Notes under the pieces: model-generated | Databases searched by the model: none | What the model was told of the DNA's origin: nothing | Seen by the model: the letters and a program-made list of their open reading frames with translations, nothing else | Program-made: the position numbers and the translations under genes | Part shown: positions 2,899-56,023 of the stretch, piece after piece | How the letters are laid out: each line of letters begins with the position of its first letter | How positions within the stretch are numbered: the stretch's first letter is position 1 | Assembly: GCA_964604905.1 (NCBI GenBank) | Contig: CAZSCC010000566.1 | Location: forward strand, 682-64,681 | Reading direction: 5' to 3' | Source: an uncultured Planctomycetales bacterium | GTDB taxonomy: Bacteria > Planctomycetota > MHYJ01 > JACPRB01 | DNA: 64,000 nucleotides

Positions 2899-4248
2899 CT
2901 ACCGCTTCTTGAATCGACCCGCCTTCTCGGCCATCTCGCGGACCGCCTGGACCACCGCGTCCTGCGCGGCGGAGGCGAAGATCCCGGGGCCTCCGGAGTA
3001 GACGCCCCGCGTCTCGTAGCCCCCCTCCTCGAGCACCCGCGCCGACGGCAGGTAGCCGAAGACGTCGTTGCAGTAGGCGGCCACCCAGAGGTTGAGCGGC
3101 CCGAGCGCCTTCTCCAGGAAGGTCACGTAGTCCACCACCACTTCCCCCGGGAGGCCCACCATCGTGAGGTCGTCCCCGAACTGCCAGAGCGCCACGGGCG
3201 CGGCGTAGTGCGACGGCACTTTCTCTCCCTTGTCGAGCAGCGCGAGGAGGCCCTTGTACACACCCCGCTTCTCGCCCGGTCCGCTCTTCGCGAGCTTCTC
3301 GAGCTCGTCGCGCGCGGGCGCCGCCTGCAGGGGGAGGTCGACCTTCTGCATCAGGGTCTGGAGCGGCCCGCGCAGCGGCTGGAGCTTCGAGCCCAGGACC
3401 CGGCTCACCTCGCGGCCGAGCGAGGTCCCGTGCTCGCGGGCGATCTCGGCCGTCCCGCGCGGGTGGGGGTTCGCGTCCCCCGCGCAGCCCAGCATCATCA
3501 GCGCCCGGGCGCCCGGGTGGAGCTCCTCCACCTGCCGCTGCGCGTAGCCGCCGTAGTCCCCCGAGAGGAGCATGTTCTTGTCGGTGAGCGTCGTGTTGTG
3601 GCAGGCACAGCCGAAGAGCACCGCCCGGAGCTTGCCGTCCGCGCCGTCCACGCGGAGGACCGGGACGCTCCGGTCGACGAGCCCGCGGGCGTTCACCCCC
3701 AGGATCACCCCCCGCGGCGTGAACTCGCGGCGGTTCATGACGAAGCCCGCCACGCCTGCGCCCCAGGAGAGCCGCGCCGGCTCCAGGTTCGCGAGCGCGG
3801 CCGCGACGAGGTCGACCACCTGGTCCTGCAGCCGGCGCGTGTAGGCGGCGGTCCGCCGCGCATCCTCGGCGGGGAAGTTCTCGCGAGCGTTCTCGTCGAG
3901 GCTCAGCGTCGGGCCGCTGTGGGTGTGGATCGAGTTGAGGAGGATCTGCCCGCGCTTGAGGCCCGATTTCGCGGAGATCCTCTCGCAGATCGCCTCCGCG
4001 ATCGCGGCCCGGAAGCCGATGAGGTCGGAGGTCACGATCACGCCGCGGTTCCCCTGGGCGTCGGCGAACGCCAGCGCCTTCGCGAAGAGGTCGTCGTTCA
4101 CCTTCTCGAAGGGCTTCGTCCGCGACGCGTAGCCCGACATCTGGACCGGCTCGTCGGGCGTGATCTTGACCGACGCGACGCCGACCTTCCAGTCGTCGTC
4201 GAGGGGAGCCGCGAAAACGGCGAACGCCAGGAGGATCCGTCCGATCAT
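2899..4248 (-). CDS. neutral/alkaline non-lysosomal ceramidase-like hydrolase (secreted)
   Basis: Signal peptide MIGRILLAFAVFAAP. N-terminal family pattern KITPDEPVQMSGYASR ... DLFAKALAF ... SIHTHSGP. ATG at 4248 chosen; the track ORF extends to 4347. Confidence 0.75.
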   Translation of the reverse strand: MIGRILLAFAVFAAPLDDDWKVGVASVKITPDEPVQMSGYASRTKPFEKVNDDLFAKALAFADAQGNRGVIVTSDLIGFRAAIAEAICERISAKSGLKRGQILLNSIHTHSGPTLSLDENARENFPAEDARRTAAYTRRLQDQVVDLVAAALANLEPARLSWGAGVAGFVMNRREFTPRGVILGVNARGLVDRSVPVLRVDGADGKLRAVLFGCACHNTTLTDKNMLLSGDYGGYAQRQVEELHPGARALMMLGCAGDANPHPRGTAEIAREHGTSLGREVSRVLGSKLQPLRGPLQTLMQKVDLPLQAAPARDELEKLAKSGPGEKRGVYKGLLALLDKGEKVPSHYAAPVALWQFGDDLTMVGLPGEVVVDYVTFLEKALGPLNLWVAAYCNDVFGYLPSARVLEEGGYETRGVYSGGPGIFASAAQDAVVQAVREMAEKAGRFKKR

Positions 4249-4334
4249 GGGAATGCCCTCTACCGGATACTTAACGCCCCGCGCCGTACGCTTTTCCCTT
4301 TCCGGTGCCACGGAGAAGGGATAAGGAGGACTCG

Positions 4335-12157: not shown

Positions 12158-13465
12158 ATGAAGGGTTTCACCGTTCTGATCCTTTCCGGGGCGGCCGTCC
12201 TGGGGAGCCCCTTGGCGCTTGGCGCGGACGAGCCCCGGCCGATCCCGCCGGACCGGTTCGACACGCTGCACCAGATGATCAAGCCGCAGCCGGGCGAGCA
12301 ACGCTTCTGGAAGATTCCGTGGAAGCTCAGCATCACGGAAGCCCGGGAGGAGGCGGCGAAGGAGGGGAAGCCGATCTTCGTCTGGGCGGGCGCGGGCGGC
12401 GCCCCGATCGGGGTCTGCTGAGCGGCGGCCTCCGCCGGCCGTGCGCCGGCCATCTGGACCGAAGAGGTCGTCCAGCTGCTCAAGGATAAGTTCGTCTGCG
12501 TGGCCCTCGACGCCCGTAAGGAGCGCGGCGAGTACAAGGATGCCGACGGCGATTTCGTCCGCGCCACCGCGTGTGTCACGGTCACGGCCTCCGGTTCGGT
12601 GTGCGTGGTGACCGCGGGCGCCAGGGCGCTCGGGCCGTACAGCGGTCCCGGACAGGGCATGGACAAGTGGCTGCAGGCCAAGCTCAAGGCCTGGAACGAG
12701 CTTCCGGAGTCCGAGCGCGCCCCCGGCGCCGTGACCGTGCCCAAGCCGGAGTCCGTCGATCCGAAGCGCGCCGCCCTGGCGCTGCCGCCGGGAGCGCTGG
12801 TCGTGCGGGTCTTCAACCGGCACCTCGGCTGGGACAAGGACGGGTCGCTGCGCTTCGTCGTTGCGGAAGACTACCTGCCCGGCGCGAGCAAGACGGAGGT
12901 CGAGCGTTTCGCCATGGCCCAGAACGATTTCATGTGGATCCCCGAAAGGGAATGGCAGGGACTGCTGCCTTCGGAGCCGAAGAAAGGCGAAAGCCGGCCC
13001 GTCCCCGTGTCCTTCGCCCTGCGGCTCTTCAGGTCCCATCTCGACCCGGCGCGGGGCTTCACCGAGGGGGCGAACTTCTCCGATTCCTCTTCCGACGCCG
13101 GCCGGCTGGCCCTGACGGTCCGCGACGTCACGGCGGACAAGCTGCAGCTGATGCTGGAGGGGAAGGCCGACCTCAAGCAACCCGGAAGGGACGAGCCGTC
13201 GACCTACCAGCCGGCCATCCTGGGCTGCCTGGAGTACGATCGAAACAAGAAGGCCTTCACCCGTTTCGACCTGCTGGCGCTGGGGAGCGCCTCCGGACTG
13301 CCGCGCGACGCCAACGGACGGATCGCGTTCCGCCAGGGGGCGTACCCGGTCGGCATCGCCTTCGAGTTGGTCGCCACCCCCACGTCGGCCGAACGGCTCC
13401 ATCCGCGGGGCGCCCGCGACAACCCGGCCGCCTACTTGGAACCGAAGGAAAAGGGAAAGCCATGA
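12158..13465 (+). CDS. secreted thioredoxin-fold protein with in-frame TGA (12419..12421): candidate selenoprotein (CU motif) fused to a C-terminal domain of unknown function
   Basis: Track ORFs 12158..12421 and 12500..13465 are in the same frame, and there is no other stop in 12422..12499. The TGA falls where the thioredoxin CxxC would sit (KPIFVWAGAGGAPIGVC-U-AAAS...IWTEEVVQLLKDKFVCVALD). A GC hairpin at 12434..12450 lies 13 nt downstream. Confidence 0.55.
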
Positions 13466-23873: not shown

Positions 23874-25877
23874 ATGGCGATGCTGATCGCGGCGCTCCTG
23901 GGGTTCGTCTCTCAGTCGGACTGGGGGAAGCACCCGGAGAACCAGTGGGTGAAACAGAGCCCGCGCGAGGGCGCCCCGGCGCCCAGGCTGGGATGGGAGG
24001 GCAGCGGCGCCTACGATCCCCTCCACCGCACGTGGATCCACCATGCGGGGCACGACGGCATCCCGCAGGGATTCGTCCTCTTCACGTTCAGCCTCGATTC
24101 GGGCGCCTGGCAGCAGCGCTTCCCGGCGAACTCGCCTCCGGGCGTGTGCTGCGTGGACGGGGCGAACGTCTTCGACCCCGCGGCCGGGCGGTTCGTCCGG
24201 TTCCCGGGCGGGAGTCTGGGCCACGGCTACCAGTGGAGCCGCGGCGTGCGGCTCAAGGAGTCGCCCGTCTGGCTCTACGACCCGTCGGCGAACCGCTGGA
24301 CCAATATGCGGCCACCGCCCTACGCCGAGCCCGAACGGCGCCAGGCGACCGGCGGACTCTGTCCCGGAGCGGCCTCCGCGGAGAACCTCGAGCTCTCGAT
24401 CTCCTTCGGCGGGACGGGCTCCGCCGGGGCGAAGAACAACCTCCACGCCTACGACGCGTGGACCAACACGCTCCACCTCCCGAAACCGGCGAATTCCCCG
24501 GACGCGCGGGACGGGATGGGACTCGCCTACGACCCCGGGAACGACGTCCTCGTGATGTTCGGGAGCCAGTACTTGAGCGACGAGAAGACCTGGCTCTACC
24601 GCTTCAAGACGAACGCCTGGGAGTCGCACGACCTGTCGCCCCGCCCGCCCGGAAAGAAGACGGGCACCTACTCGACGATCCCGAAGATGGCGTACGACTC
24701 GGCGAACCGGGTCCTCCTCTGCATCGCATGGCTGGGCGAGAAGGGCGGCCACGAGACGTGGACGTTCGATGCGGCCAAGCTGCAGTGGGCGAAGATGGAT
24801 CCGAAGGCGGACGTCGCGCCTTCGAAGAGCCGCGCGCGGAATCTCGCCTACTCGCGCGACCACAATGTCTTTATCCTCGAGACCACCGCCGTGAGCGGCG
24901 GGCCGGAGGTCTGGACCTACCGAACCCGGAATGCGCCGGCGCCCGTCGCGACGTTGTCGGGCCTCGAGGTCGTCACGGAGAAGGAGAAGGCGGTCCTGGC
25001 CTGGAGGGGCGCGGCCGAAGCGGAGATCCTCCGCGCCGAGCCGGCCGATCCGTGGGCGCTGGACTTTAAGAAGCTCGGGGCGGCGAAGGGCGGGCGGTAC
25101 GAGGACGCCGGCCTCGTGGGCGGGAAGGCGTATGTCTATCTCGTCCGGAGCGGCGGCGCGGTTCTGCGAGGCCGCGCGCAGCCGCGCGTCCCCGAGCCAC
25201 CCACGGTCTCGGTCGTCACGGCCGACCGGGTGGAGGTCCGCTGGAGCGCGCATCCGGCGAAAGACGTCGCCGGCTACAACGTCTACCGCGGCATCGCCGC
25301 TGTCAAGACGGTCATGAAGGGGCAGCCGGCGCCCTGGAAGGACAACGACCCCGAGTACGCCGGGCCGCAGGTGGTCCGCATCGTCGACGTCACCAGGATC
25401 GAGAAGCTGAATGGCGCGCCGCTCGCGGGGACGGCGTTCGAGGACCGGATCGACCTTTCGAAGAAGGGGCCGGAATCGGAAGACTACGCGTGGGCGGTAT
25501 ACGCCTACATCGTCCGTGCGGTGAACCGTCTGGGGACCGAGAGCGGCCCGTCGCCCTATGCGCTTACGATCCCCTCGGAGCCGCCGGGCCTGCTGTGCCG
25601 CGAGAAGGGGACGACGGCGGAGCTCCGCTGGGGCGCGAGCCCCGAGAAGGGGATCCGCGGGTATCACGTCTACAAGCTGGAAGGCGGCGTCTTCGGGATC
25701 AAGCGGGTGACGGAGACGCCGGTCGCCGCGACGACGTTCACCCACGAGGCGGGGAAGGGCGCGACCCGCTACTGGGTGGTCGCGGTCGACGCGCTCGGCC
25801 AGGAGGGCCAACCGTCGTCGCCCGCCTGGTTCGGCCAGTCGTACAAGGGCTTCTTCGAGGGCGAGTGGCACCCCTGA
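23874..25877 (+). CDS. Kelch-like beta-propeller plus fibronectin-III-like domains, membrane-anchored or secreted
   Basis: AGGAGGGG RBS precedes the ATG at 23874. N-terminal hydrophobic segment MAMLIAALLGFV. Propeller blades (NRWTNMRPP, NAWESHDL, LQWAKMDP) followed by two FN3-like segments (VEVRWSAHPAKDVAGYNVYR; AELRWGASPEKGIRGYHVYK). Confidence 0.8.
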   Translation: MAMLIAALLGFVSQSDWGKHPENQWVKQSPREGAPAPRLGWEGSGAYDPLHRTWIHHAGHDGIPQGFVLFTFSLDSGAWQQRFPANSPPGVCCVDGANVFDPAAGRFVRFPGGSLGHGYQWSRGVRLKESPVWLYDPSANRWTNMRPPPYAEPERRQATGGLCPGAASAENLELSISFGGTGSAGAKNNLHAYDAWTNTLHLPKPANSPDARDGMGLAYDPGNDVLVMFGSQYLSDEKTWLYRFKTNAWESHDLSPRPPGKKTGTYSTIPKMAYDSANRVLLCIAWLGEKGGHETWTFDAAKLQWAKMDPKADVAPSKSRARNLAYSRDHNVFILETTAVSGGPEVWTYRTRNAPAPVATLSGLEVVTEKEKAVLAWRGAAEAEILRAEPADPWALDFKKLGAAKGGRYEDAGLVGGKAYVYLVRSGGAVLRGRAQPRVPEPPTVSVVTADRVEVRWSAHPAKDVAGYNVYRGIAAVKTVMKGQPAPWKDNDPEYAGPQVVRIVDVTRIEKLNGAPLAGTAFEDRIDLSKKGPESEDYAWAVYAYIVRAVNRLGTESGPSPYALTIPSEPPGLLCREKGTTAELRWGASPEKGIRGYHVYKLEGGVFGIKRVTETPVAATTFTHEAGKGATRYWVVAVDALGQEGQPSSPAWFGQSYKGFFEGEWHP

Positions 25878-30832: not shown

Positions 30833-32215
30833 ATGAAGCGGCGCGAGTTCCTCCGGGCCGGACTCTCCGGGTTCGCGAGCCTCTCGCTCCCGGGGCTCTT
30901 CCGTCTGCGCGCGGCGACGGCCCAGGAGGCGAAGCCCAGGACGGCCGTCATCCTGGTCTGGCTGCGCGGAGGGGCCTCCCACCTCGAGACGTACGACCCC
31001 AAGCCCGAGGCGTCGTCCGAATTCCGCGGCATCTTCGGCCCCCTCTCCACGCGCGTGCCCGGCCTGCGGGTCAGCGAACTGCTCCCGCTCCACGCGAAGA
31101 TCGCCGACAAGTTCACGCTGGTCCGCTCGATGTCCCACACCGGCGGAGGCCATCCGGCCGGCTCGCTCCAGATGCTCGGCGGCGATCCCGACCCGCAGGA
31201 CAAGCAGCGGCCGATCTATCCCGACTGGATGACGGTGGCCAACCTGCTGCGCGCCGACCGCGCCCGTCCGCTGCCGAACTACGTCGGCGTGAACCCGGTC
31301 TCCACCTACGACGGCTTCGTCATCGCGGGCTCCGGCTACGTGAGCCCGGCTTACGGCCCCTTCTCCGTGACGGGCGACCCCAGCGACCCCCGCTTCGAGG
31401 TCCCCAACATCGGCCTCCGGGACCCGGCCCAGGCGGAGCGGCTCGGCGAGCGTGTCCGGCTCAGCCGACGGCTCGACGGCCTCGCGCGGGCCGCGGATCA
31501 CTCGGGGGCGATGAAGACGATCGACGACTTCGAGGGGCAGGCGCTCAAGCTCCTGACCAGCCCCTCGGCCCGGGAGGCCTTCGACCTGACGCGCGAGCCG
31601 GACCGCGTCCGCGACCGCTACGGCCGCCACGCCTGGGGGCAGCAGTGCCTCATGGCCCGCCGGCTCGTCGAAGCCGGCGTGGAGATCGTCACGACGACCT
31701 TCGACGGCCCGCTCTGCGGGCGTGTCGGCAACTGGGACGACCACGCGGTCAACCACCACATCTTCGACGCGATGAAGTTCAGGGCGCCCGTCTTCGACCA
31801 GGCCGTCAGCGCCCTGATCGAGGACGTCACCGCGCGGGGCCTGGACAAGCGGGTGCTCGTGGTCGTCACCGGCGAGTTCGGTCGGACGCCGCGCCTGACC
31901 GAGGTGGCCAGCAGCGGCGGCGGGGTCGCGAGCGGCCCGGTGGGGACGGTCCAGCCCGGCCGCGACCACTGGCCGCGGGCCTTCTCGCAGCTTTGGGCGG
32001 GCGGCGGCATCGAGACGGGCTGCGTGATCGGCGCCACGGACAAGCGGGGCGAGGAGGTGGTCGAGCGGAGGTTCTCGACCGGGGATTTCCTGGCCACGAT
32101 CTACCGCCATCTGGGCATCCCGGCGGAGCAGGTGGCGCTCCCCGATTTCTCCGGGCGGCCCACGCCGATCCTCACCCACGGCGCGCCGATCCCGGAGTTG
32201 AAGGGACGGTCCTGA
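30833..32215 (+). CDS. DUF1501 domain protein (Tat signal)
   Basis: MKRREFLRAGLSGFASL twin-arginine signal, TGEFGRTPR, GRDHW. Confidence 0.9.
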   Translation: MKRREFLRAGLSGFASLSLPGLFRLRAATAQEAKPRTAVILVWLRGGASHLETYDPKPEASSEFRGIFGPLSTRVPGLRVSELLPLHAKIADKFTLVRSMSHTGGGHPAGSLQMLGGDPDPQDKQRPIYPDWMTVANLLRADRARPLPNYVGVNPVSTYDGFVIAGSGYVSPAYGPFSVTGDPSDPRFEVPNIGLRDPAQAERLGERVRLSRRLDGLARAADHSGAMKTIDDFEGQALKLLTSPSAREAFDLTREPDRVRDRYGRHAWGQQCLMARRLVEAGVEIVTTTFDGPLCGRVGNWDDHAVNHHIFDAMKFRAPVFDQAVSALIEDVTARGLDKRVLVVVTGEFGRTPRLTEVASSGGGVASGPVGTVQPGRDHWPRAFSQLWAGGGIETGCVIGATDKRGEEVVERRFSTGDFLATIYRHLGIPAEQVALPDFSGRPTPILTHGAPIPELKGRS

Positions 32216-46133: not shown

Positions 46134-48779
46134 CTACCAGGTCCTGCGGTCGGCCAGCATCGCCTCGGCCTGCACGGGGACGACAGGCTTGGAGAAGATG
46201 TAGCCTTGGGCGTACTCGCAGCGGAGCGCCCGGAGGGCCGCCAGTTGCTCGGGGGTCTCGACCCCTTCCGCGATCACGTTGATGTCGAGGTTCTGGGCGA
46301 GCGAGATGATCGTCCGCACGATCTCGTGGCCTTCCCCCACCGAGCCCATCCGACCCACGAACGAGCGGTCGATCTTGAGCGCGTCGATCGGAAACTTGTG
46401 GAGGTAGGAGAGGGACGAATAGCCGGTCCCGAAATCGTCGAGGTAGAACCGCGCGCCGCCGCGGCGGATGTTCTCGAGGATCGCGTTGGCGGCGTCGGCG
46501 CCGTCCATGAGGACGCTCTCGGTGATCTCCAGGCCGAGCGAGTCGCCGTGCAGCCCGGTCGACTGGAGGGTGCTCTCGATGTAGTGGGCGAGGTCCGCCT
46601 GGCCGAACTGGCGGCCGGAGAGGTTGACGCTCACCGAGAGCGGCCGGGCCTTGGGGAATTTCAGGTGCCACTCCTGGAGTTGCCGGCACGCCTCGCGGAG
46701 CACCCAGCGGTCGATGTCGATCACGAGGCCGGTCTCCTCGGCCATCTTGATGAATTCGCCGGGCGCGACGAGCCCGCGACCGGGGTGGTTCCAGCGGACG
46801 AGGGCTTCAAAGCCCGAGATGCGTCCGTCCTGCAGGGAGACGACCGGCTGGTAGTGGACGACGAACTCCTGCCGCTCGATGGCGCGGCGAAGGTCGGTCT
46901 CCATCTTGAAAATGTGGAGCGCGCGGGCGTGCATGGCGCGGTCGAAGACCTCGTGGCGCGCGCCGCCATTCGATTTCGCGCGGTACATGGCGATGTCGGC
47001 GTCGCGAAGGATGTCGTCCGTCTTCTCGTAGCCGGTCTCGCTGAGCGCGACGCCGATGCTCGCGCTCGTGAAGATCTCCTGGCCGCCGAGCAGGATGGGC
47101 TGCCTGAACTGCGCCTGGATGCGGTCCGCCACCTGCGAGGCATCGGCGCCGTCCTTCACGTCCTCGAGGAGGACGGTGAACTCGTCGCCGCCGAGGCGGG
47201 CGGCGGTGTCCCCGGGCCGCACGCAGCGCTCGATGCGGCGGGAGACCTCGATCAGGAGCTGGTCGCCGGCGAGGTGGCCGAGGCTGTCGTTGACCACCTT
47301 GAATCGGTCGAGGTCGAGGAAGAGGACCGCGAAGCGCAAGTCCTTCCGGCGGAGCGCGAGGCGGAGGCACTGGCCGAGGCGGTCCATGAAGAGCGCGCGG
47401 TTGGGGAGTCCGGTGAGCGCGTCGTGGAACGCGTCGTGGATGAGCTGCTCCTCGAGGGACTTGCGCTCGGTGATGTCGGTGGCGGTGACGACGTAGAACC
47501 GGGGCGCGCCGTCGTGGCCGGCGAGCGACGTCCGCGACCAGCTGATCCGGGGACGGCTCCCGTTCTTCGTCACCCACGAGTGCTCGAAGAGGTCCGAGGT
47601 GGGCGCGTCGTGGCCCTGCGAGAGGATGGTGCGGCCCTGCTCGACGTCCTCCGGGGACAGGAAGAGCGGGGCGAAGGGGAGCCCTCTTACCTCGTCGGGC
47701 GAGTGGCCCATCGTGTGGGCGCACTGCCGGTTGATCCGCACGACCCGGAGCGACGCGTCCAGGACGATCACCATGATGTTGGCGGTGTCGAGGACGGCGG
47801 AGACGAAGTTGCGCTCCTCGCGGAGCGCCTCCTCCGCGCGGCGCCGGCCTTCGGCCTCGATCGCGAGCGAGGCCATGTCGGCGATCGACGAGGCGAACTC
47901 CTGTTCCTCGAGCGTCCACTCGCGGGCCGGCCCGACGTGCTCGTAGCAGAGGACGCCTGCCAGCTTGCCGTGGAGGCGCACGGGGACGTCCATCATGGAC
48001 GTGATTCCGAGCGGCTTTAGGTAGCCCTCCGTGAACTCGGCGGTGCGGGGGTCCTTCCGCGCGTCGTCGGCCGGCACGACGCGGCTCTCCTCGAGCGCCC
48101 CGAAGTAGCGGGGGTAATCGCGCGCGGCGAGGCGCATGCCCTGCTCGTAGACCCGCGCGTCGAGCCGGTAGAGGAGCCGGCACTGGATGTCGCTGTGGTC
48201 CTCGTTGAACAGCCACAAGCCCACGCGCTCCACCTTCAGCATCTGGGAGGAACAAAGGGTCAGCCTCCGCAGGGCGGGCTCGAGGTCCGAAGAGTCGAGC
48301 CGGGCGAGCTCAAGGAGCGCCTCCTGGTAGCGGTGGACGAGGTCGGTCCGCTTCAGGAGCGCCTCGCGGGAGCGCCGTCGTTCCGCGGCGTAGCGGACGG
48401 ACCGGACGAGGAGGTACGGGTCGAGCCGGTTCTTGAAGAGGAGATCGAGCGCTCCCCGCTGGGCGGCGAGCGTGGGAGTGCATCCCAAGGACGAATGGGC
48501 CAGGGCGATCACGGGGACGCCCGGGGCGCCTTGGCGGAAGCGGTCAATGGCGTCGAGCCCGGGGGCGTCCGGGAGCGCCAGGTCGAGGAGCGCGACGTCG
48601 TGGGGCTGCTGGGCGTGCCGCTCGAGGGCCGCGTCGAGCCGGGTCGCATGGCTGATCGAGAAGTTGAGGAGCGGCTTGACGGTGTCTAGCATCGACATGA
48701 TGAGCTTGACGTCTACGGGGTCGTGCTCGATGAGGAGGATGCGGAAGGGCTCGCGCCGGTCGGTTCTGGAACTGTCCAT
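46134..48779 (-). CDS. response-regulator receiver / GAF / PAS / GGDEF / EAL protein
   Basis: REC (ILLIEHDPVD...VALLDLALPD), RLGGDEFTVLL, GFEALVRWNHP, DDFGTGYSSLSYL. Confidence 0.9.
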   Translation of the reverse strand: MDSSRTDRREPFRILLIEHDPVDVKLIMSMLDTVKPLLNFSISHATRLDAALERHAQQPHDVALLDLALPDAPGLDAIDRFRQGAPGVPVIALAHSSLGCTPTLAAQRGALDLLFKNRLDPYLLVRSVRYAAERRRSREALLKRTDLVHRYQEALLELARLDSSDLEPALRRLTLCSSQMLKVERVGLWLFNEDHSDIQCRLLYRLDARVYEQGMRLAARDYPRYFGALEESRVVPADDARKDPRTAEFTEGYLKPLGITSMMDVPVRLHGKLAGVLCYEHVGPAREWTLEEQEFASSIADMASLAIEAEGRRRAEEALREERNFVSAVLDTANIMVIVLDASLRVVRINRQCAHTMGHSPDEVRGLPFAPLFLSPEDVEQGRTILSQGHDAPTSDLFEHSWVTKNGSRPRISWSRTSLAGHDGAPRFYVVTATDITERKSLEEQLIHDAFHDALTGLPNRALFMDRLGQCLRLALRRKDLRFAVLFLDLDRFKVVNDSLGHLAGDQLLIEVSRRIERCVRPGDTAARLGGDEFTVLLEDVKDGADASQVADRIQAQFRQPILLGGQEIFTSASIGVALSETGYEKTDDILRDADIAMYRAKSNGGARHEVFDRAMHARALHIFKMETDLRRAIERQEFVVHYQPVVSLQDGRISGFEALVRWNHPGRGLVAPGEFIKMAEETGLVIDIDRWVLREACRQLQEWHLKFPKARPLSVSVNLSGRQFGQADLAHYIESTLQSTGLHGDSLGLEITESVLMDGADAANAILENIRRGGARFYLDDFGTGYSSLSYLHKFPIDALKIDRSFVGRMGSVGEGHEIVRTIISLAQNLDINVIAEGVETPEQLAALRALRCEYAQGYIFSKPVVPVQAEAMLADRRTW

Positions 48780-48871
48780 GACCCCGCAGGAAAAGGTTCG
48801 AAGAAACTATACCCCGCCGAGGGGAGATTGGGGGCAAAAACCATAGGGGATCGGGTGATTAGAAAGAGGGG

Positions 48872-50892: not shown

Positions 50893-51609
50893 ATGAACCG
50901 ATGGGCATTGATCCTGGCGCCGCTGTTCCTGGCGTGCGTCCATCAGGAGGACAAGCTTCCTCCTCCGCCCGACCCGCTTTACGAGACGCGCGCGAAGCAC
51001 GATCCGAACGGGATCGGCAAGTTCTACATGGATCGCGAGATCGCGCACGTGATGGGGCCCGGCGGGATCCCCTGGCTGGAGCGCCCGGAGCGGGAGGACG
51101 AGGAGCGGCCCACCAAGGTCATCGAGGCCCTGGGGCTCAAGGGGGACGAGGTGGTCTGCGACCTGGGAGCCGGGAGCGGCTACTACACGTTCCGACTGGC
51201 TCCGAAGCTCCCCAAGGGGAAGGTCCTCGCCGTCGAGATCCAGGACGACATGATCAAGGAGCTCAAGAAGAACATCGAGTCGAAGAAGACCACGAACGTC
51301 GAGATCATCAAGGGGGAGGAGAAGGATCCGAAGCTCCCGGAGAAGGGCGTGGACCTGCTCCTCATGGTCGACGTCTACCACGAGCTGGCGTTCCCCTACG
51401 AGACGATGCTGGCGATCAGGAAGGGGCTCAAGCCGGGGGCGCGGGTCGTGCTCGTCGAGTTCCGCAAGGAGGACCCGAAGGTCCCGATCAAGGAAGTGCA
51501 CAAGATGTCGGAGGAGCAGATCAAGAAGGAGATGGCGGTCGTGGGGCTCACGCACGTGAAGACGGTGGGGACGCTGCCGTGGCAGCACATCGCCATCTAC
51601 AGGAGATAG
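50893..51609 (+). CDS. class I SAM-dependent methyltransferase with lipoprotein-type signal
   Basis: LFLAC lipobox and motif I VCDLGAGSGYYT. 238 aa. Confidence 0.8.
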   Translation: MNRWALILAPLFLACVHQEDKLPPPPDPLYETRAKHDPNGIGKFYMDREIAHVMGPGGIPWLERPEREDEERPTKVIEALGLKGDEVVCDLGAGSGYYTFRLAPKLPKGKVLAVEIQDDMIKELKKNIESKKTTNVEIIKGEEKDPKLPEKGVDLLLMVDVYHELAFPYETMLAIRKGLKPGARVVLVEFRKEDPKVPIKEVHKMSEEQIKKEMAVVGLTHVKTVGTLPWQHIAIYRR

Positions 51610-51655
51610 GGAGATAGGGGAGATTAGGAGATAAGAGAAGAGGAGAAGAGGGGAT
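51601..51655 (+). repeat. C-free polypurine-rich tract with four GGAGAT(A/T) units at 8-9-nt spacing
   Basis: aGGAGATAgGGAGATAggGGAGATTaGGAGATAagagaagaggagaagagggga. By my count, 49 of 55 positions are purines and there is no C. It overlaps the methyltransferase stop (51607..51609). Confidence 0.8.
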
Positions 51656-51737
51656 CCGAGAGGAAAATATTATAGGGCACGGGGCAGGCCATACGTGAGG
51701 GAGCGGCGTATACTCCCCCAGACGGAGGGTGACTGGA

Positions 51738-52496
51738 ATGAAGATGCTCTCGATGGCTGCGGTGGCGCTGGCGCTCATGGCCTCCTCGGCCCTGGCGGGC
51801 GGCGGCGGGAAGATCAAATTCAGCGAGGGGAAGCAGCACGACCAACTCCTCGCCGAGGCGAAGGCGAGCGGCACGCCCGTCATGCTCTACTTCACGGGCG
51901 AGGGGTGAGTGTACTGCAAGCAGCTGGACGCAGGTGCGTTCTCCGACGACAAGGTGGTCAAGGCCTCGGAAGGGTTGATCCGGATCCTGGTCGACAACGG
52001 CAAGGACGGGAAGCTCTTCCAGAAGTACAACATCAGCGGCATGCCGACGATCCTCTTCCTCGACGCGGAAGGCAAGCAGGTGGGCTCGCTCGGGGACCGG
52101 AGCGCCGGCGGCGTGGAGAAGCAGCTGACCGAGATCGTCTCCAAGCACAGCCGGGCCCCGCAGTGGACGGCGGGCGCCGACGCGACGGTGACGGCGGCGA
52201 AGGACGGCTCCAAGCCCGGGGTGCTCGTCTTCGTGGACGACAAGCCCAAGTCGCAGCTGTTCCTCAAGATCTTCAGCGATCCGGCGCTGGCCTCGCTCTA
52301 CGAGAAGGCCTCGTTCGGGAAGGTCGAGTTCAAGAAGGACTCGGAGGAGTGCAAGAAGTGGAAGGTGACGGAGGCGCCGGTCTGCCTGATCGTCGATCCT
52401 GCGGATGAATCGAAGCCGCTCAAGACGTGGAAGAGCGGGACGGCCAAGGCGCTCGCCAAGGAGATCGAGGAGGCCGCCAAGAAGCTGAAGAAGTGA
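51738..52496 (+). CDS. secreted thioredoxin-fold protein with in-frame TGA (51906..51908): candidate selenoprotein with UxxC redox motif
   Basis: The ATG at 51738 (GGAGGG 8 nt upstream) opens signal peptide MKMLSMAAVALALMASSALA, then ...GTPVMLYFTGEG-TGA-VYCKQLDAGAFSDDKVV... The track ORF 51909..52496 is in the same frame and starts on the codon right after the TGA. Confidence 0.7.
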
Positions 52497-52601
52497 TCTG
52501 AAGGAGAGTCCCGAACGGGCCCTGCTTCCTGTGGGGCCCGCTTCATTTTAAATGATGTGCGCGATCGTGAATCAAGCGGACCGGCCGGTCGTCTCCTGAA
52601 C

Positions 52602-53480
52602 ATGGAACCGAAGCCGAACCGAGGGGCCTGGATCGTCGGGCTGGGGGCGATCGTCGCCTGTCTCCTGATCGTGGGGCCGATCGCGTGCTCGATGAGCTCC
52701 GCCCGCCATACCGGGGAAAGGGTCGAGCTGCGCTACCGGTTCGAATGGATCGTGAGGCGCTCCGGCCCCCCTCAATCGATCCCTCAGCTGACCGACTCTG
52801 TCCGTCGACGCCTGGAATCCCTGGACAGCGGCGAGGTCCGGGTGAGGGTCGAGAGAGACGAGGTCGTGGTGAGGATGGACGGGATCGACCCCGTGCGCCT
52901 GCCCGACGCCCGAAGATTGCTCGGACAGACGGGATTCCTGGAGCTCTGCCCCGTCGCGGATCGGGCGGTCCAGGATCAGTTCAAGCGGGACGGCACCCTC
53001 CCGCCCGGGTACCGTGGCGTCGAGAACAAGGTCCGGTCGTTCGACGCGGAATACGCACCCTGGAGCGGGCCGATGCTCATCATAGAGAGCCGGCCAGCTC
53101 TCCACGGTGGCCACATCATCGCAAGCGAGGCCCAGCAGGAATTGGGGCTCGGTGGATCCATGTGGGTCACGACGTTCGAGCTGGACGCGGACGGGGCGCG
53201 GTCCTTCGACGCGGCGGCGAAGATCCTCTATCACCGGAGCCCGGCGGGATTGGTCGCCATCCTGCTCGACGGGACATTGAAGAGCGCTCCGGCCGTCCTC
53301 TCGGAGTCGTTCGTCGGCCGCGTTCGGATCTCGGGGGCCAAGAGCGAGCAGGAGGCGAAGGAACTGGCCATCATCCTCAAGAGCGGAGCGCTCCCGGCAC
53401 GGCTGGGGAGGATCAAGGACGGCGTCTTCGTCCCTGGCGAGCCCCAGGAGGAGCGCCGCTTTGGTCCGGAGAAGAAGTAG
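52602..53480 (+). CDS. SecD-like periplasmic (P1) domain protein lacking the SecD/F membrane domain
   Basis: One N-terminal TM segment, then FLELCPVAD, ...LDADGARSFDAAAK..., VAILLDGTLKSAPAVLS...ISGAKSEQEAKELAIILKSGALPARL, which resembles the SecD P1 head/base. No further TM segments. Confidence 0.55.
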   Translation: MEPKPNRGAWIVGLGAIVACLLIVGPIACSMSSARHTGERVELRYRFEWIVRRSGPPQSIPQLTDSVRRRLESLDSGEVRVRVERDEVVVRMDGIDPVRLPDARRLLGQTGFLELCPVADRAVQDQFKRDGTLPPGYRGVENKVRSFDAEYAPWSGPMLIIESRPALHGGHIIASEAQQELGLGGSMWVTTFELDADGARSFDAAAKILYHRSPAGLVAILLDGTLKSAPAVLSESFVGRVRISGAKSEQEAKELAIILKSGALPARLGRIKDGVFVPGEPQEERRFGPEKK

Positions 53481-53518: not shown

Positions 53519-55963
53519 CTACCAGCGGGGCTCGGTGGCGACGAGCGCGGCGATCTCCTCGGCGCTCACCGGCTTGCTGAAGAGGTAGCCCTGCCCGAAG
53601 CCGCACTTGAGCATGCGGAGCTCGCCCAACTGGTTCTGGGTCTCCACGCCCTCCGCGACCACGCGCATCCCCATGTTGTGAGCGAGCGTCACGATCGCGC
53701 GCACGATCTCGTGGCCCTCGCGCTTGGCGCCCATCCGCGAGACGAAGGAACGGTCGATCTTGACCGCGTCGATCGGGAACCGGTGGAGGTAGCTGAGCGA
53801 GGAGTAGCCCGTGCCGAAGTCGTCGAGGTAGATCTGGACCCCGTGCTTGCGAAGGTCGCGCAGCATCTGGCCGGCCGCCTCGGCGTTGTCGATCAGGACG
53901 CCCTCGGTGATCTCGACCGCCAGGCTGCTGGGGGAGAGGCCCGTCTCCTTGAGCGCCCCCGTCACGGCGTCGACGAGATCGCTCTGGCGGAACTGGCGGC
54001 CGGAGAGGTTGACGCTCACGGTGAGTCGGCCGCCGTCGGGGAAGTGGCCCTGCCACTCCTTGAGCTGGCGGCAGGCCTCGCGCAGGACCCAGCGGTCGAT
54101 GGCGATGATGAGGCCCGCCTCCTCGGCCACGTTGATGAAGTCGAAGGGCGAGACGAAGCCGCGCTGGGGGTGATTCCACCGGACCAGCGCCTCGAAGCCG
54201 ATGATGCGGCCGCTCTCGAGGGAGACGATGGGCATGTAGTAGGCGACGAACTCGCCGCGCTCGATGGCCTGCCGGAGCTCGGTCTCCATCTGGAGGAGCA
54301 CGACCGCGCGGGCGTGCATGGTGGTGTCGAAGACCTCGGCGCGCGCGCGGCCCAGGGACTTGGCGCGGTACATCGCGGTGTCGGCGTCGCGGAGGACGTC
54401 CTCCGCCTTCTCGTATCCCGTCATGCCCATCGCGATCCCGATCGAGGCGCTGCAGACGATCTCCTGCCCGCCCACGTGGACGGACTCCTTGAGGGCGACC
54501 TGGATGCGGTCCGCCACGACGGCGGCGTCCGCGGAGTCGGTCACGTCCTCGAGGAGGATCGCGAACTCGTCGCCGCCCAGGCGTGCGACCGTGTCGCCGG
54601 GGCGGACGGACTTCTCGAGGCGGCGCGCGGTCTCGACCAGGAGTTCGTCGCCGGGCCCGTGGCCCATCGAGTCGTTGATCAGCTTGAAGCGGTCGAGGTC
54701 GAGGAAGAGGACGGCGAAGAGCTTGTCCTTCTCGCGCCGCTTGTGCTTGAGGCGGTGGCCGAGGCGGTCGATGAAGAGCGAGCGGTTGGGGAGGCCGGTG
54801 AGGGCGTCGTGGAGGGCCTCGTGGATGAGCTGCTCCTCGGCGAGTTTGCGCTGGGTGGTGTCGGTCTGGGCGCCGACCATGCGGTAGGCGTGGCTGTCGC
54901 CGTTGCGGACGGCGAGGCCGCGGCTGAGGACCCAGCGGTAGCCGCGGTCCTTGTGGCGAATGCGGTGCTCGATCTCGAAGGTGGCGGTCCGGCCCTCGAG
55001 GTGTTCCTGGAGCGCGGCCTGGACGTTGGCGAGGTCGTCGGGGTGGATGCGGCGGAACCATTCGAAGGGGGTGGTCCCGATCTCGCCGTTGTCGCAGCCC
55101 AGCATCTCCTTCCAGCGCAGGGAGTAGTAGACCTCGTTGGTCTTGAGGTTCCAGTCCCAGAGGCCGTCGTTGACGCTCTGGGCGGCGAGGGCGTAGCGCT
55201 CCTCGCTGGCGCGGAGGGCTTCCTCGGCGACGCGGCGCTCGCTGATGTCGACGGCCATGCCGCCCACGAAGCGTTGGCCCGAGCCGTCGTCGACGGGGAA
55301 CTGGAGGATCCACCAGTGCTGGAGCGGGCCGCTCTGGACGGGGAGAGTCTCGTAGAGCTGGCGGGACTTGCCGGTCTCGAGGATGGCGCGGTCGTTCTCG
55401 GCCATCTGGCGCGAGGTCTCGGAGGTCCAGGGGCCCGCGCCGGAGCGGCCGGCGACGTCGGCGAGACGGAGCTTGAAGGTCAGCTCGAAGGGGGTGTTGA
55501 CGTACACGTAACGGCCATGCTCGTCCTTCATCCACGCGACGGTGGGGCTGTGGTCCATGAACGCCTTGAACCGTTCCTCGCTCTCGCGGAGCTTGAGCGA
55601 GACCCGGCTGGCGCCGCGCCGGTAGAGGAGGCCGACCATCAGGACGATGACGGGGAGGATGATCGTGGCCCCGATGACGCGGCGGAGTTCCTCGGGCTCG
55701 TACCGGAAGGGACGGCCCGGGAGCGAGAAGGACCACGCGAGGTAGATCCAGCCGATGGCCGCGCTGGCGAAGCCGGGGCGGAGGCCGCCCGAGAAGGCGG
55801 AGAAGACGACGGCAAGGAGGACGAGCGCGGAAGGGTCATGGATGGGAAAAGCGAAGCGGAGAAGCTCCAGCGCTCCCACGCCCGCGAGGGTGAGCGCCGG
55901 CCCGCCGGCCTGGGTCCAGAACTTCTTGCGGGAGGGGTCCCGCAGCCAATCCCCGATTCCCAT
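53519..55963 (-). CDS. membrane sensor with PAS domains / GGDEF / EAL
   Basis: N-terminal hydrophobic segments, PAS repeats, RLGGDEFAILL, GFEALVRWNHP, DDFGTGYSSLSYL. Confidence 0.9.
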   Translation of the reverse strand: MGIGDWLRDPSRKKFWTQAGGPALTLAGVGALELLRFAFPIHDPSALVLLAVVFSAFSGGLRPGFASAAIGWIYLAWSFSLPGRPFRYEPEELRRVIGATIILPVIVLMVGLLYRRGASRVSLKLRESEERFKAFMDHSPTVAWMKDEHGRYVYVNTPFELTFKLRLADVAGRSGAGPWTSETSRQMAENDRAILETGKSRQLYETLPVQSGPLQHWWILQFPVDDGSGQRFVGGMAVDISERRVAEEALRASEERYALAAQSVNDGLWDWNLKTNEVYYSLRWKEMLGCDNGEIGTTPFEWFRRIHPDDLANVQAALQEHLEGRTATFEIEHRIRHKDRGYRWVLSRGLAVRNGDSHAYRMVGAQTDTTQRKLAEEQLIHEALHDALTGLPNRSLFIDRLGHRLKHKRREKDKLFAVLFLDLDRFKLINDSMGHGPGDELLVETARRLEKSVRPGDTVARLGGDEFAILLEDVTDSADAAVVADRIQVALKESVHVGGQEIVCSASIGIAMGMTGYEKAEDVLRDADTAMYRAKSLGRARAEVFDTTMHARAVVLLQMETELRQAIERGEFVAYYMPIVSLESGRIIGFEALVRWNHPQRGFVSPFDFINVAEEAGLIIAIDRWVLREACRQLKEWQGHFPDGGRLTVSVNLSGRQFRQSDLVDAVTGALKETGLSPSSLAVEITEGVLIDNAEAAGQMLRDLRKHGVQIYLDDFGTGYSSLSYLHRFPIDAVKIDRSFVSRMGAKREGHEIVRAIVTLAHNMGMRVVAEGVETQNQLGELRMLKCGFGQGYLFSKPVSAEEIAALVATEPRW

Positions 55964-56023
55964 GGTCTCCTAGACTCCCCCTCTCCGTTCTCCCCATAAG
56001 TTATACCCCCTCATTCGAGGAGT

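Follow-up and report, generated by a model that had tools for sequence, protein, structure and literature searches.

The gene considered here lies at 51738-52496, on the forward strand, of a 64,000-nucleotide stretch of DNA (hereafter the window) from an uncultured Planctomycetales bacterium (assembly GCA_964604905.1, contig CAZSCC010000566.1), in which planctomycete hallmark families are represented by PSCyt1/PSCyt2/PSD1, DUF1501 and several sulfatases. The frame that opens at the ATG codon 51738-51740 reaches a TGA at 51906-51908 and continues through 195 open codons to a second TGA at 52494-52496, in agreement with an earlier note on this DNA, which had also pointed to the GGAGGG in front of the ATG and had proposed that the internal UGA encodes selenocysteine (Sec). 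The joined read-through site is ...VMLYFTGEG-U-VYCKQLDAGAFSDDKVV. Both halves of the frame show a GC content at third codon positions (GC3) of 0.90-0.95, which is gene-like for a window of 69% GC. When both strands were scanned blind for TGA codons flanked on either side by 30 coding-like codons (GC3 of at least 0.85) free of stops, 51906 and 12419 were the only sites recovered from the 64 kb. Two same-frame pairs of open reading frames (ORFs), 3-452/453-1577 and 28134-29255/29256-30131, turned out to be separate neighbouring genes and not split ones. Elsewhere in the window TGA is a normal stop, as had been noted before, for at least eight Pfam-validated genes, including Ada (1575-1577), a Kelch protein (25875-25877) and a DUF1501 protein (32213-32215), so the genetic code is not altered globally. 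In view of the comparative evidence given below, 51738-52496 is very probably a single selenoprotein gene in which UGA 51906 is read as Sec.

In regard to the conservation of the TGA, a search of a 5.8-billion-protein database returned 42 close homologues (52-96% identity) of 153-198 residues, all of which start at or after the TGA position; their gene calls open with VYCKQLD..., LDAGAF... or VVKAS... and cover no more than 77% of the joined protein. At the DNA level, 23 related loci were compared, coming from at least 20 independent assemblies (NCBI metagenome-assembled genomes (MAGs) of Planctomycetota/Planctomycetales, JGI, ENA and Logan); a scan of genome contigs gave 6 loci with an alignment as the query and none with a single protein. 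All 23 loci, at 44-96% protein identity, have an in-frame TGA at the same position, the distance from ATG to TGA is exactly 56 codons in 19 of 22, and the upstream peptide is conserved as a signal peptide followed by GGGGKIKxxEGKxHDxxLAEAKxxGxPxxLYFT. The redox motif itself varies among the loci between UVYC, UGAC, UGPC, UGYC and UPPC. The ratio of nonsynonymous to synonymous substitution rates (dN/dS) against the window sequence, calculated with 11 homologues, was 0.34 for the upstream codons 21-56 and 0.52-0.59 downstream. By this comparative evidence, the part upstream of the TGA is translated. One orthologue, in a Planctomycetales MAG (L003, 2817-3255), stops 87 codons past the TGA (...KKHGREAKKK, then the stop) and has no second domain; this may be naturally a single-domain variant, or else the result of a frameshift or faulty assembly.

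Full-length two-domain proteins of 250-350 residues were additionally recovered when 1.84 billion representatives were searched with a profile. Four of these relatives carry Cys at the Sec column, within the motifs CPAC (P0188), CKYC (P0215), CRIC (P0270) and CPLC (P0301), and DWCxxC occupies the Sec position in more remote loci of DsbD-gamma type, found in Aminicenantes and other phyla, while the second Cys of the motif is invariant in all full-length relatives. At the level of the alignment, the family thus displays the classical Sec/Cys pair. The alignment of homologues, with TGA in close relatives and Cys in more distant ones, therefore follows the expectation of the earlier note, and its proposal of Sec insertion is supported by the conserved TGA, by these Cys forms and by a hairpin resembling a selenocysteine insertion sequence (SECIS), which is a different hairpin from the one it had drawn.

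With U replaced by C, the joined protein matches three Pfam families above their thresholds, all within residues 34-128: Thioredoxin_2 (PF13098, 44 bits, cut-off 27), Thioredoxin (PF00085, 40 bits, cut-off 23.5) and Thioredoxin_7 (PF13899, 38.3 bits, cut-off 27). Among the entries of the Protein Data Bank (PDB), the best match is 1uc7 (E = 2.9e-10), the E. coli DsbD gamma domain, where the segment VMLYFTGEG-U-VYCKQLDAGAFSD covers the CVAC region and U57 corresponds to the first Cys of CVAC. It follows from this alignment that the TGA stands exactly at the first Cys of a thioredoxin-fold CxxC, where the earlier note had placed it. The cis-Pro loop M-P-T is present as well (Pro103, 52044-52046), with GMPTILF aligned to GLPTILF of 1uc7. 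The first 20 residues have the pattern of a cleavable signal peptide, with an MK n-region, a hydrophobic core and an AxA motif (ALA followed by GGGG), a lipobox Cys is absent, and the mature N-terminus GGGGKIK is kept in homologues.

The second domain has KPKS where CxxC would be. In an AlphaFold2 model of the 195-residue piece after the UGA, which leaves out the first 57 residues, it reaches a per-residue confidence (pLDDT) of 85-96 and shows a beta-alpha-beta-alpha-beta-beta-alpha topology. The top Foldseek matches of this model were the two-domain a-b unit of protein disulfide isomerase (PDI), QSOX1 Trx1-Trx2, ERp57 and ERp44, with TM-scores of just 0.3-0.47, and single DsbD gamma domains were also among the matches; as modelled, the second domain resembles the PDI 'b' domain. 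P0043 and P0044 have this domain as well, joined there to another N-terminus. None of the curated NCBIfam selenoprotein models reached its cut-off with the joined protein, the shared thioredoxin domain being the sole matching part (TsoB NF045694, 62.4 against 805 bits; Trx7/PDZ NF041199, 21.8 against 300; VPGUxxT type 2 NF041383, 21.2 against 275), and the TsoB match is confined to the DsbD-like part.

Downstream of the UGA, RNAalifold places a consensus hairpin at 51926-51941, composed of a 6-bp stem (51926-51931 with 51936-51941, GGACGC/GCGUUC) and the apical loop AGGU (51932-51935), with a spacing of 23 nt from UGA to loop and an energy of -7.9 kcal/mol. Stem pairing is kept in 120 of 120 cells and in all 20 distinct sequences, the four one-sided stem changes (G-U to A-U and A-U to G-U) all retain pairing, and the stem is lengthened to 8 bp where homologues encode the following Ser by AGC. 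The loop codons GCA for Ala and GGT for Gly are each shared by 16 of the 18 sequences. Outside the loop, the two codons account for 1.6% of Ala and 2.4% of Gly codons, respectively, in these genes and for 1.4% and 2.9% in the other genes of the window; where the D-G-A-(F/L) peptide recurs in three Cys- or Ser-form relatives, the common GGC stands instead of GGT. Fixation of such rare codons is the strongest argument for a putative RNA element at this place. Regarding the forms without Sec, the CPLC-form P0301 (L062/L063) retains GAGCGC-AGGA-GCGUUC at the SECIS position of the Sec forms, which may be a fossil SECIS, a relic of a recent Sec-to-Cys conversion.

The hairpin 51926-51941 also fits the published bacterial SECIS (bSECIS) criteria (apical loop of 3-9 nt with G in the two initial positions, stem of 4-16 bp, spacing of 16-37 nt and minimum free energy of at most -7.5 kcal/mol; PMC13188914), so a bacterial SECIS model does hold downstream of the UGA, though not for the hairpin of the earlier note. 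That hairpin (51907-51917 with 51930-51941) was rejected as a conserved element: it can form, being approximately the single-sequence structure at -8.6 kcal/mol, but it is no better than in shuffled sequences and is not conserved, since 3 of its 11 pairs, in its centre, are unpaired in 10-12 of the 20 distinct homologues. With a 12-nt loop starting with AA and lying 9 nt from the UGA, it also falls outside the bSECIS model. The single-sequence fold of 51900-51965 as a whole was no better than shuffles (z = +1.3), and for that reason thermodynamics alone is uninformative here.

From the sequence we infer the following course of events, from Sec insertion itself to export, catalytic role and redox partner. 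Ribosomes would initiate at ATG 51738, and the hairpin 51926-51941, with its AGGU loop and located 20 nt downstream of the UGA, would recruit SelB-Sec-tRNA(Sec). Sec could then be inserted at UGA 51906 instead of termination, and translation would run to TGA 52494, followed by the terminator. The predicted 252-residue product, made of a DsbD-gamma-like thioredoxin domain and a second thioredoxin-like domain without an active site, would be exported via its cleavable signal peptide. Most likely it would function as a periplasmic or extracytoplasmic thiol-disulfide oxidoreductase, either a reductase or an isomerase, with Sec57 as the presumed nucleophile towards substrate disulfides and the invariant Cys60 as the residue that would resolve the selenenylsulfide. 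The inactive second domain probably serves substrate binding, as in PDI.

Several observations weigh against a reading of UGA 51906 as Sec. Ser (3), Ala (1) or Asn (1) occupies the Sec column in other divergent full-length relatives, and such forms show that the first position is not redox-active in every divergent relative. Double-sided covariation is absent from the hairpin across the 20 distinct sequences, because the hairpin is nearly invariant. In our own implementation, 20% of the 1204 TGA trinucleotides in the GC-rich window also satisfy the bSECIS criteria, so that a bSECIS match alone is weak and conservation carries the weight. Rfam returned neither SECIS nor another credible family, at the gathering threshold for the whole window or at E of at most 10 for 51700-52100. 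Finally, selA, selB, selD and tRNA-Sec were not found within the 64-kb window, where ARAGORN detected no tRNA or tRNA-Sec. The frequency of chance bSECIS matches and the missing Sec machinery of the window could also be accommodated by read-through of another kind, in which an ordinary residue would enter position 57 through some other recoding or through a Trp, Cys or Arg tRNA that is near-cognate or acts as a suppressor. We regard this as improbable, as a single base change to TGC or TGT would restore Cys, yet TGA has long been kept at the catalytic Cys position, which is a signature of Sec and not of leaky read-through. The hairpin conserved at the nucleotide level, with its GG(U) loop and SECIS-like spacing, argues in the same direction, as does the Sec machinery documented in Planctomycetes, where complete selA, selB, selC and selD sets were described in Gemmata, Isosphaera and two other planctomycetes, one of which also has split candidates for a 'thiol-disulfide isomerase-like thioredoxin' selenoprotein (PMC4807772). 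Together with the second conserved in-frame TGA gene of the window and the further Sec paralogues at the related loci, both described below, these reports offer good indirect support for the use of Sec by the lineage.

Alternatively, translation could stop at 51906 and restart at GTG 51909, giving a 56-residue secreted peptide and a 195-residue cytoplasmic protein, which is how gene callers annotate the locus, as two ORFs. The GTG directly follows the TGA, and GAGGGG lies 3 nt before it; the claim of the earlier note that the downstream piece has no ribosome-binding site is thus only partly upheld, in that the spacing is too short and a start codon is absent there in most homologues. Indeed, the subfamilies with UGAC, UGPC, UGYC and UPPC have GGG, GGC or CCG after the TGA, none of them a start codon, which rules out stop and restart as a general arrangement; in those cases the callers choose a later start, so that the conserved Cys drops out. 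The split would also part the signal peptide and beta1-alpha1-beta2 from the rest of one thioredoxin fold, whereas the full-length Cys-form relatives are single proteins, and we consider such an arrangement highly improbable even at this locus. A pseudogene, or a TGA produced by a sequencing or assembly error, has in its favour the in-frame stop itself and nothing further. The breadth of TGA conservation, with the same codon in the 23 loci, as well as purifying selection on both halves and the absence of frameshifts, reduces the likelihood of this explanation to almost nil. Sec insertion at UGA 51906 consequently remains the reading that we favour.

The features of the proposed selenoprotein gene are collected in the table.

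Features at the 51738-52496 locus, in positions of the window
Feature	Position	Strand	Description	Basis
Shine-Dalgarno-like GGAGGG	51724..51729	+	8 nt 5' of start codon	direct reading
proposed complete selenoprotein coding sequence	51738..52496	+	252 codons, Sec predicted as codon 57, TGA stop 52494-52496	translation
predicted Sec-type signal peptide MKMLSMAAVALALMASSALA	51738..51797	+	cleavage after ALA	sequence pattern
in-frame UGA, putatively selenocysteine	51906..51908	+	first, nucleophilic residue of UxxC (U-V-Y-C = 51906-51917)	comparative alignment
proposed SECIS core	51926..51941	+		RNAalifold consensus
domain 1, DsbD-gamma / Thioredoxin_2/7-like thioredoxin fold	51810..52142	+	approximately residues 25-135	Pfam, PDB alignment
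domain 2, thioredoxin-like fold without CxxC	52155..52493	+	approximately residues 140-252	AlphaFold2, Foldseek
intrinsic-terminator-like hairpin and T-rich tail	52516..52550	+	20 nt past true stop codon	terminator scan

The sequence upstream of 51738 showed no sigma-70-like promoter. Between the stop of a methyltransferase gene and the selenoprotein gene, at 51600-51660, there is a purine-rich imperfect repeat, GGAGATAGGGAGATAGGGGAGATTAGGAGATAAGAGAAGAGGAGAAGAGGGGA. Directly past the terminator, the ORF 52557-53480 (+) has as its sole match SecDF P1-head (PF22599, residues 191-301 of the stop-to-stop segment) and ends just before the convergent GGDEF/EAL gene 53519-55969. The latter is one of two genes for large GGDEF/EAL proteins, 46134-48806 (-) and 53519-55969 (-), whose products are 62% identical over their C-terminal halves and which bracket the region of a sulfatase, the methyltransferase and the selenoprotein. 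The loci compared do not share a conserved operon: methyltransferase and GGDEF/EAL neighbours are common only to L015, L007 and L021, and L053 and L055 are flanked by other genes. No DsbD or CcdA neighbour was present at the loci inspected. Since the neighbours vary, the context provides neither a functional clue nor a partner.

The second site returned by the blind scan, the in-frame TGA 12419-12421, belongs to a gene at 12158-13465 (+) with the motif ...WAGAGGAPIGVC-U-AAASAGRAP. For this gene the database contained more than 100 homologues, all of them called downstream of the TGA only, and at the DNA level the TGA is kept in 3 of 3 loci. In the hairpin 12434-12450 (GCCGGC-CGUGC-GCCGGC), G-U falls at positions 23-24 counted from the UGA, and L061 has one compensatory change, from C-G to A-U. 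The only full-length homologues found, P0151 of Thermogemmata fonticola and P0153, have Arg and not Cys at the Sec column (GNCRWS), and the product has no Pfam or NCBIfam match. This gene may represent an undescribed selenoprotein family. The earlier note had called it a second case in a paralogous domain, and of this the conserved in-frame TGA stands, but no similarity to the 51738 protein could be detected.

Further genes with an in-frame TGA were observed at the related loci. Tandem paralogues of the same two-domain architecture occur in L009 (approximately 400-1180), L010, L014, L017 and L024, directly upstream of the orthologue, and in L025 (approximately 1-700), with the motifs NGSG-U-SSGSC, which has UxxxxC spacing, and TADW-U-GYC. 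In the NGSG-U-SSGSC paralogue (L009, L014, L017, L024), GGUC forms the apical loop of an 8-bp stem, 28 nt past the UGA. About 1.5 kb downstream of the orthologue in L002 (approximately 3760-4300), a gene with an in-frame TGA encodes a small secreted protein that combines the C-terminal domain of the 51738 protein with a Cys-rich N-terminus (...ALCPVKPG...IGLC-U-ASC). Its Cys forms, P0043 and P0044, have CCTAC at the place of C-U-ASC, and P0043 has no Pfam match; a Sec-containing metal- or redox-site protein is a possible interpretation. Lastly, an unrelated thioredoxin-like gene in L051 (approximately 3991) reads FTRSYAP-U-PPCKALESG across its in-frame TGA, followed by a strong downstream hairpin, GGAGAGUGG-UUC-ACUCUCC.

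Four candidate Sec-containing families are found within a few kb of each other, namely the UxxC family, the tandem UxxxxC paralogue, the metal-site-like CUxxC protein and, at 12158, the GVCU protein, and very compact SECIS hairpins, placed inside conserved peptide motifs, seem to serve all four. In every database entry seen, the gene of the 51738 family is split into ORFs of 56-57 and 180-198 residues, which hides the family, together with its active site and signal peptide, from current annotation. The family would add a secreted Sec-dependent thiol-disulfide oxidoreductase to the redox biology of the planctomycete envelope, and it points to selenium dependence and a selenoprotein-rich lineage among soil and freshwater planctomycetes. 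The compact, nearly invariant 16-nt hairpin could also be useful material for the study of SelB recognition outside Proteobacteria and Firmicutes. As a tentative proposal, held with slightly less than even confidence, this two-domain family with a signal peptide is undescribed and essentially obligate-Sec, UGA being present in every close orthologue seen, and possibly forms part of a large, mostly unannotated extracytoplasmic selenoproteome of soil and freshwater Planctomycetota.

The most frequent class among predicted bacterial selenoproteins is that of thioredoxin-fold proteins with a UxxC motif. The 51738 family is accordingly not conceptually new, as such proteins have been predicted before, in Planctomycetes included, and it involves no new mechanism. 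Among its closest known counterparts is the 'thiol:disulfide interchange protein' selenoprotein family (PF13098, UxxC; reference WP_011366075.1) listed in PMC13188914, with which it shares PF13098 as the best Pfam match, Sec at the first position of UxxC, a signal peptide and the redox motif, as well as prediction by the same comparative logic of Sec/Cys pairs combined with a SECIS in the coding region. Unlike that family, it has an extra C-terminal thioredoxin-like domain without CxxC and occurs in Planctomycetota. The closest solved structure by sequence is DsbD gamma of E. coli (1uc7, 2fwe, 1vrs), aligned through the beta-strand, CxxC, K-x-(L/F) ... F-S-D and the cis-Pro loop G-L/M-P-T-I-L-F. 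Nevertheless, the 51738 protein is predicted to be soluble and secreted with its own signal peptide, and to have Sec in place of Cys and a second domain; DsbD gamma, by contrast, is attached to an electron-transfer domain in the membrane. The predicted order of a redox-active domain followed by a redox-inactive thioredoxin-like one recalls the a-b pair of PDI (OsPDIL2-3 9wzl, ERp57, ERp44) and QSOX1 Trx1-Trx2, but beyond the fold there is no detectable sequence relationship, and the 51738 protein is bacterial and predicted to be extracytoplasmic and Sec-bearing. As for the RNA element, the SECIS of the E. coli fdhF type is a 17-nt minihelix with the loop GGUC, essential G23 and U24, and an 11-nt spacer. 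The candidate at 51926-51941 differs from it in a spacer of 17 nt instead of 11, in the absence of the bulged U and in its loop, AGGU (GGGC in two homologues). Both have a short GC-rich stem immediately 3' of the UGA inside the coding region and GGU in the apical tetraloop, and the likeness to fdhF extends to the tandem paralogue of L009, L014, L017 and L024 with its longer stem and GGUC loop.

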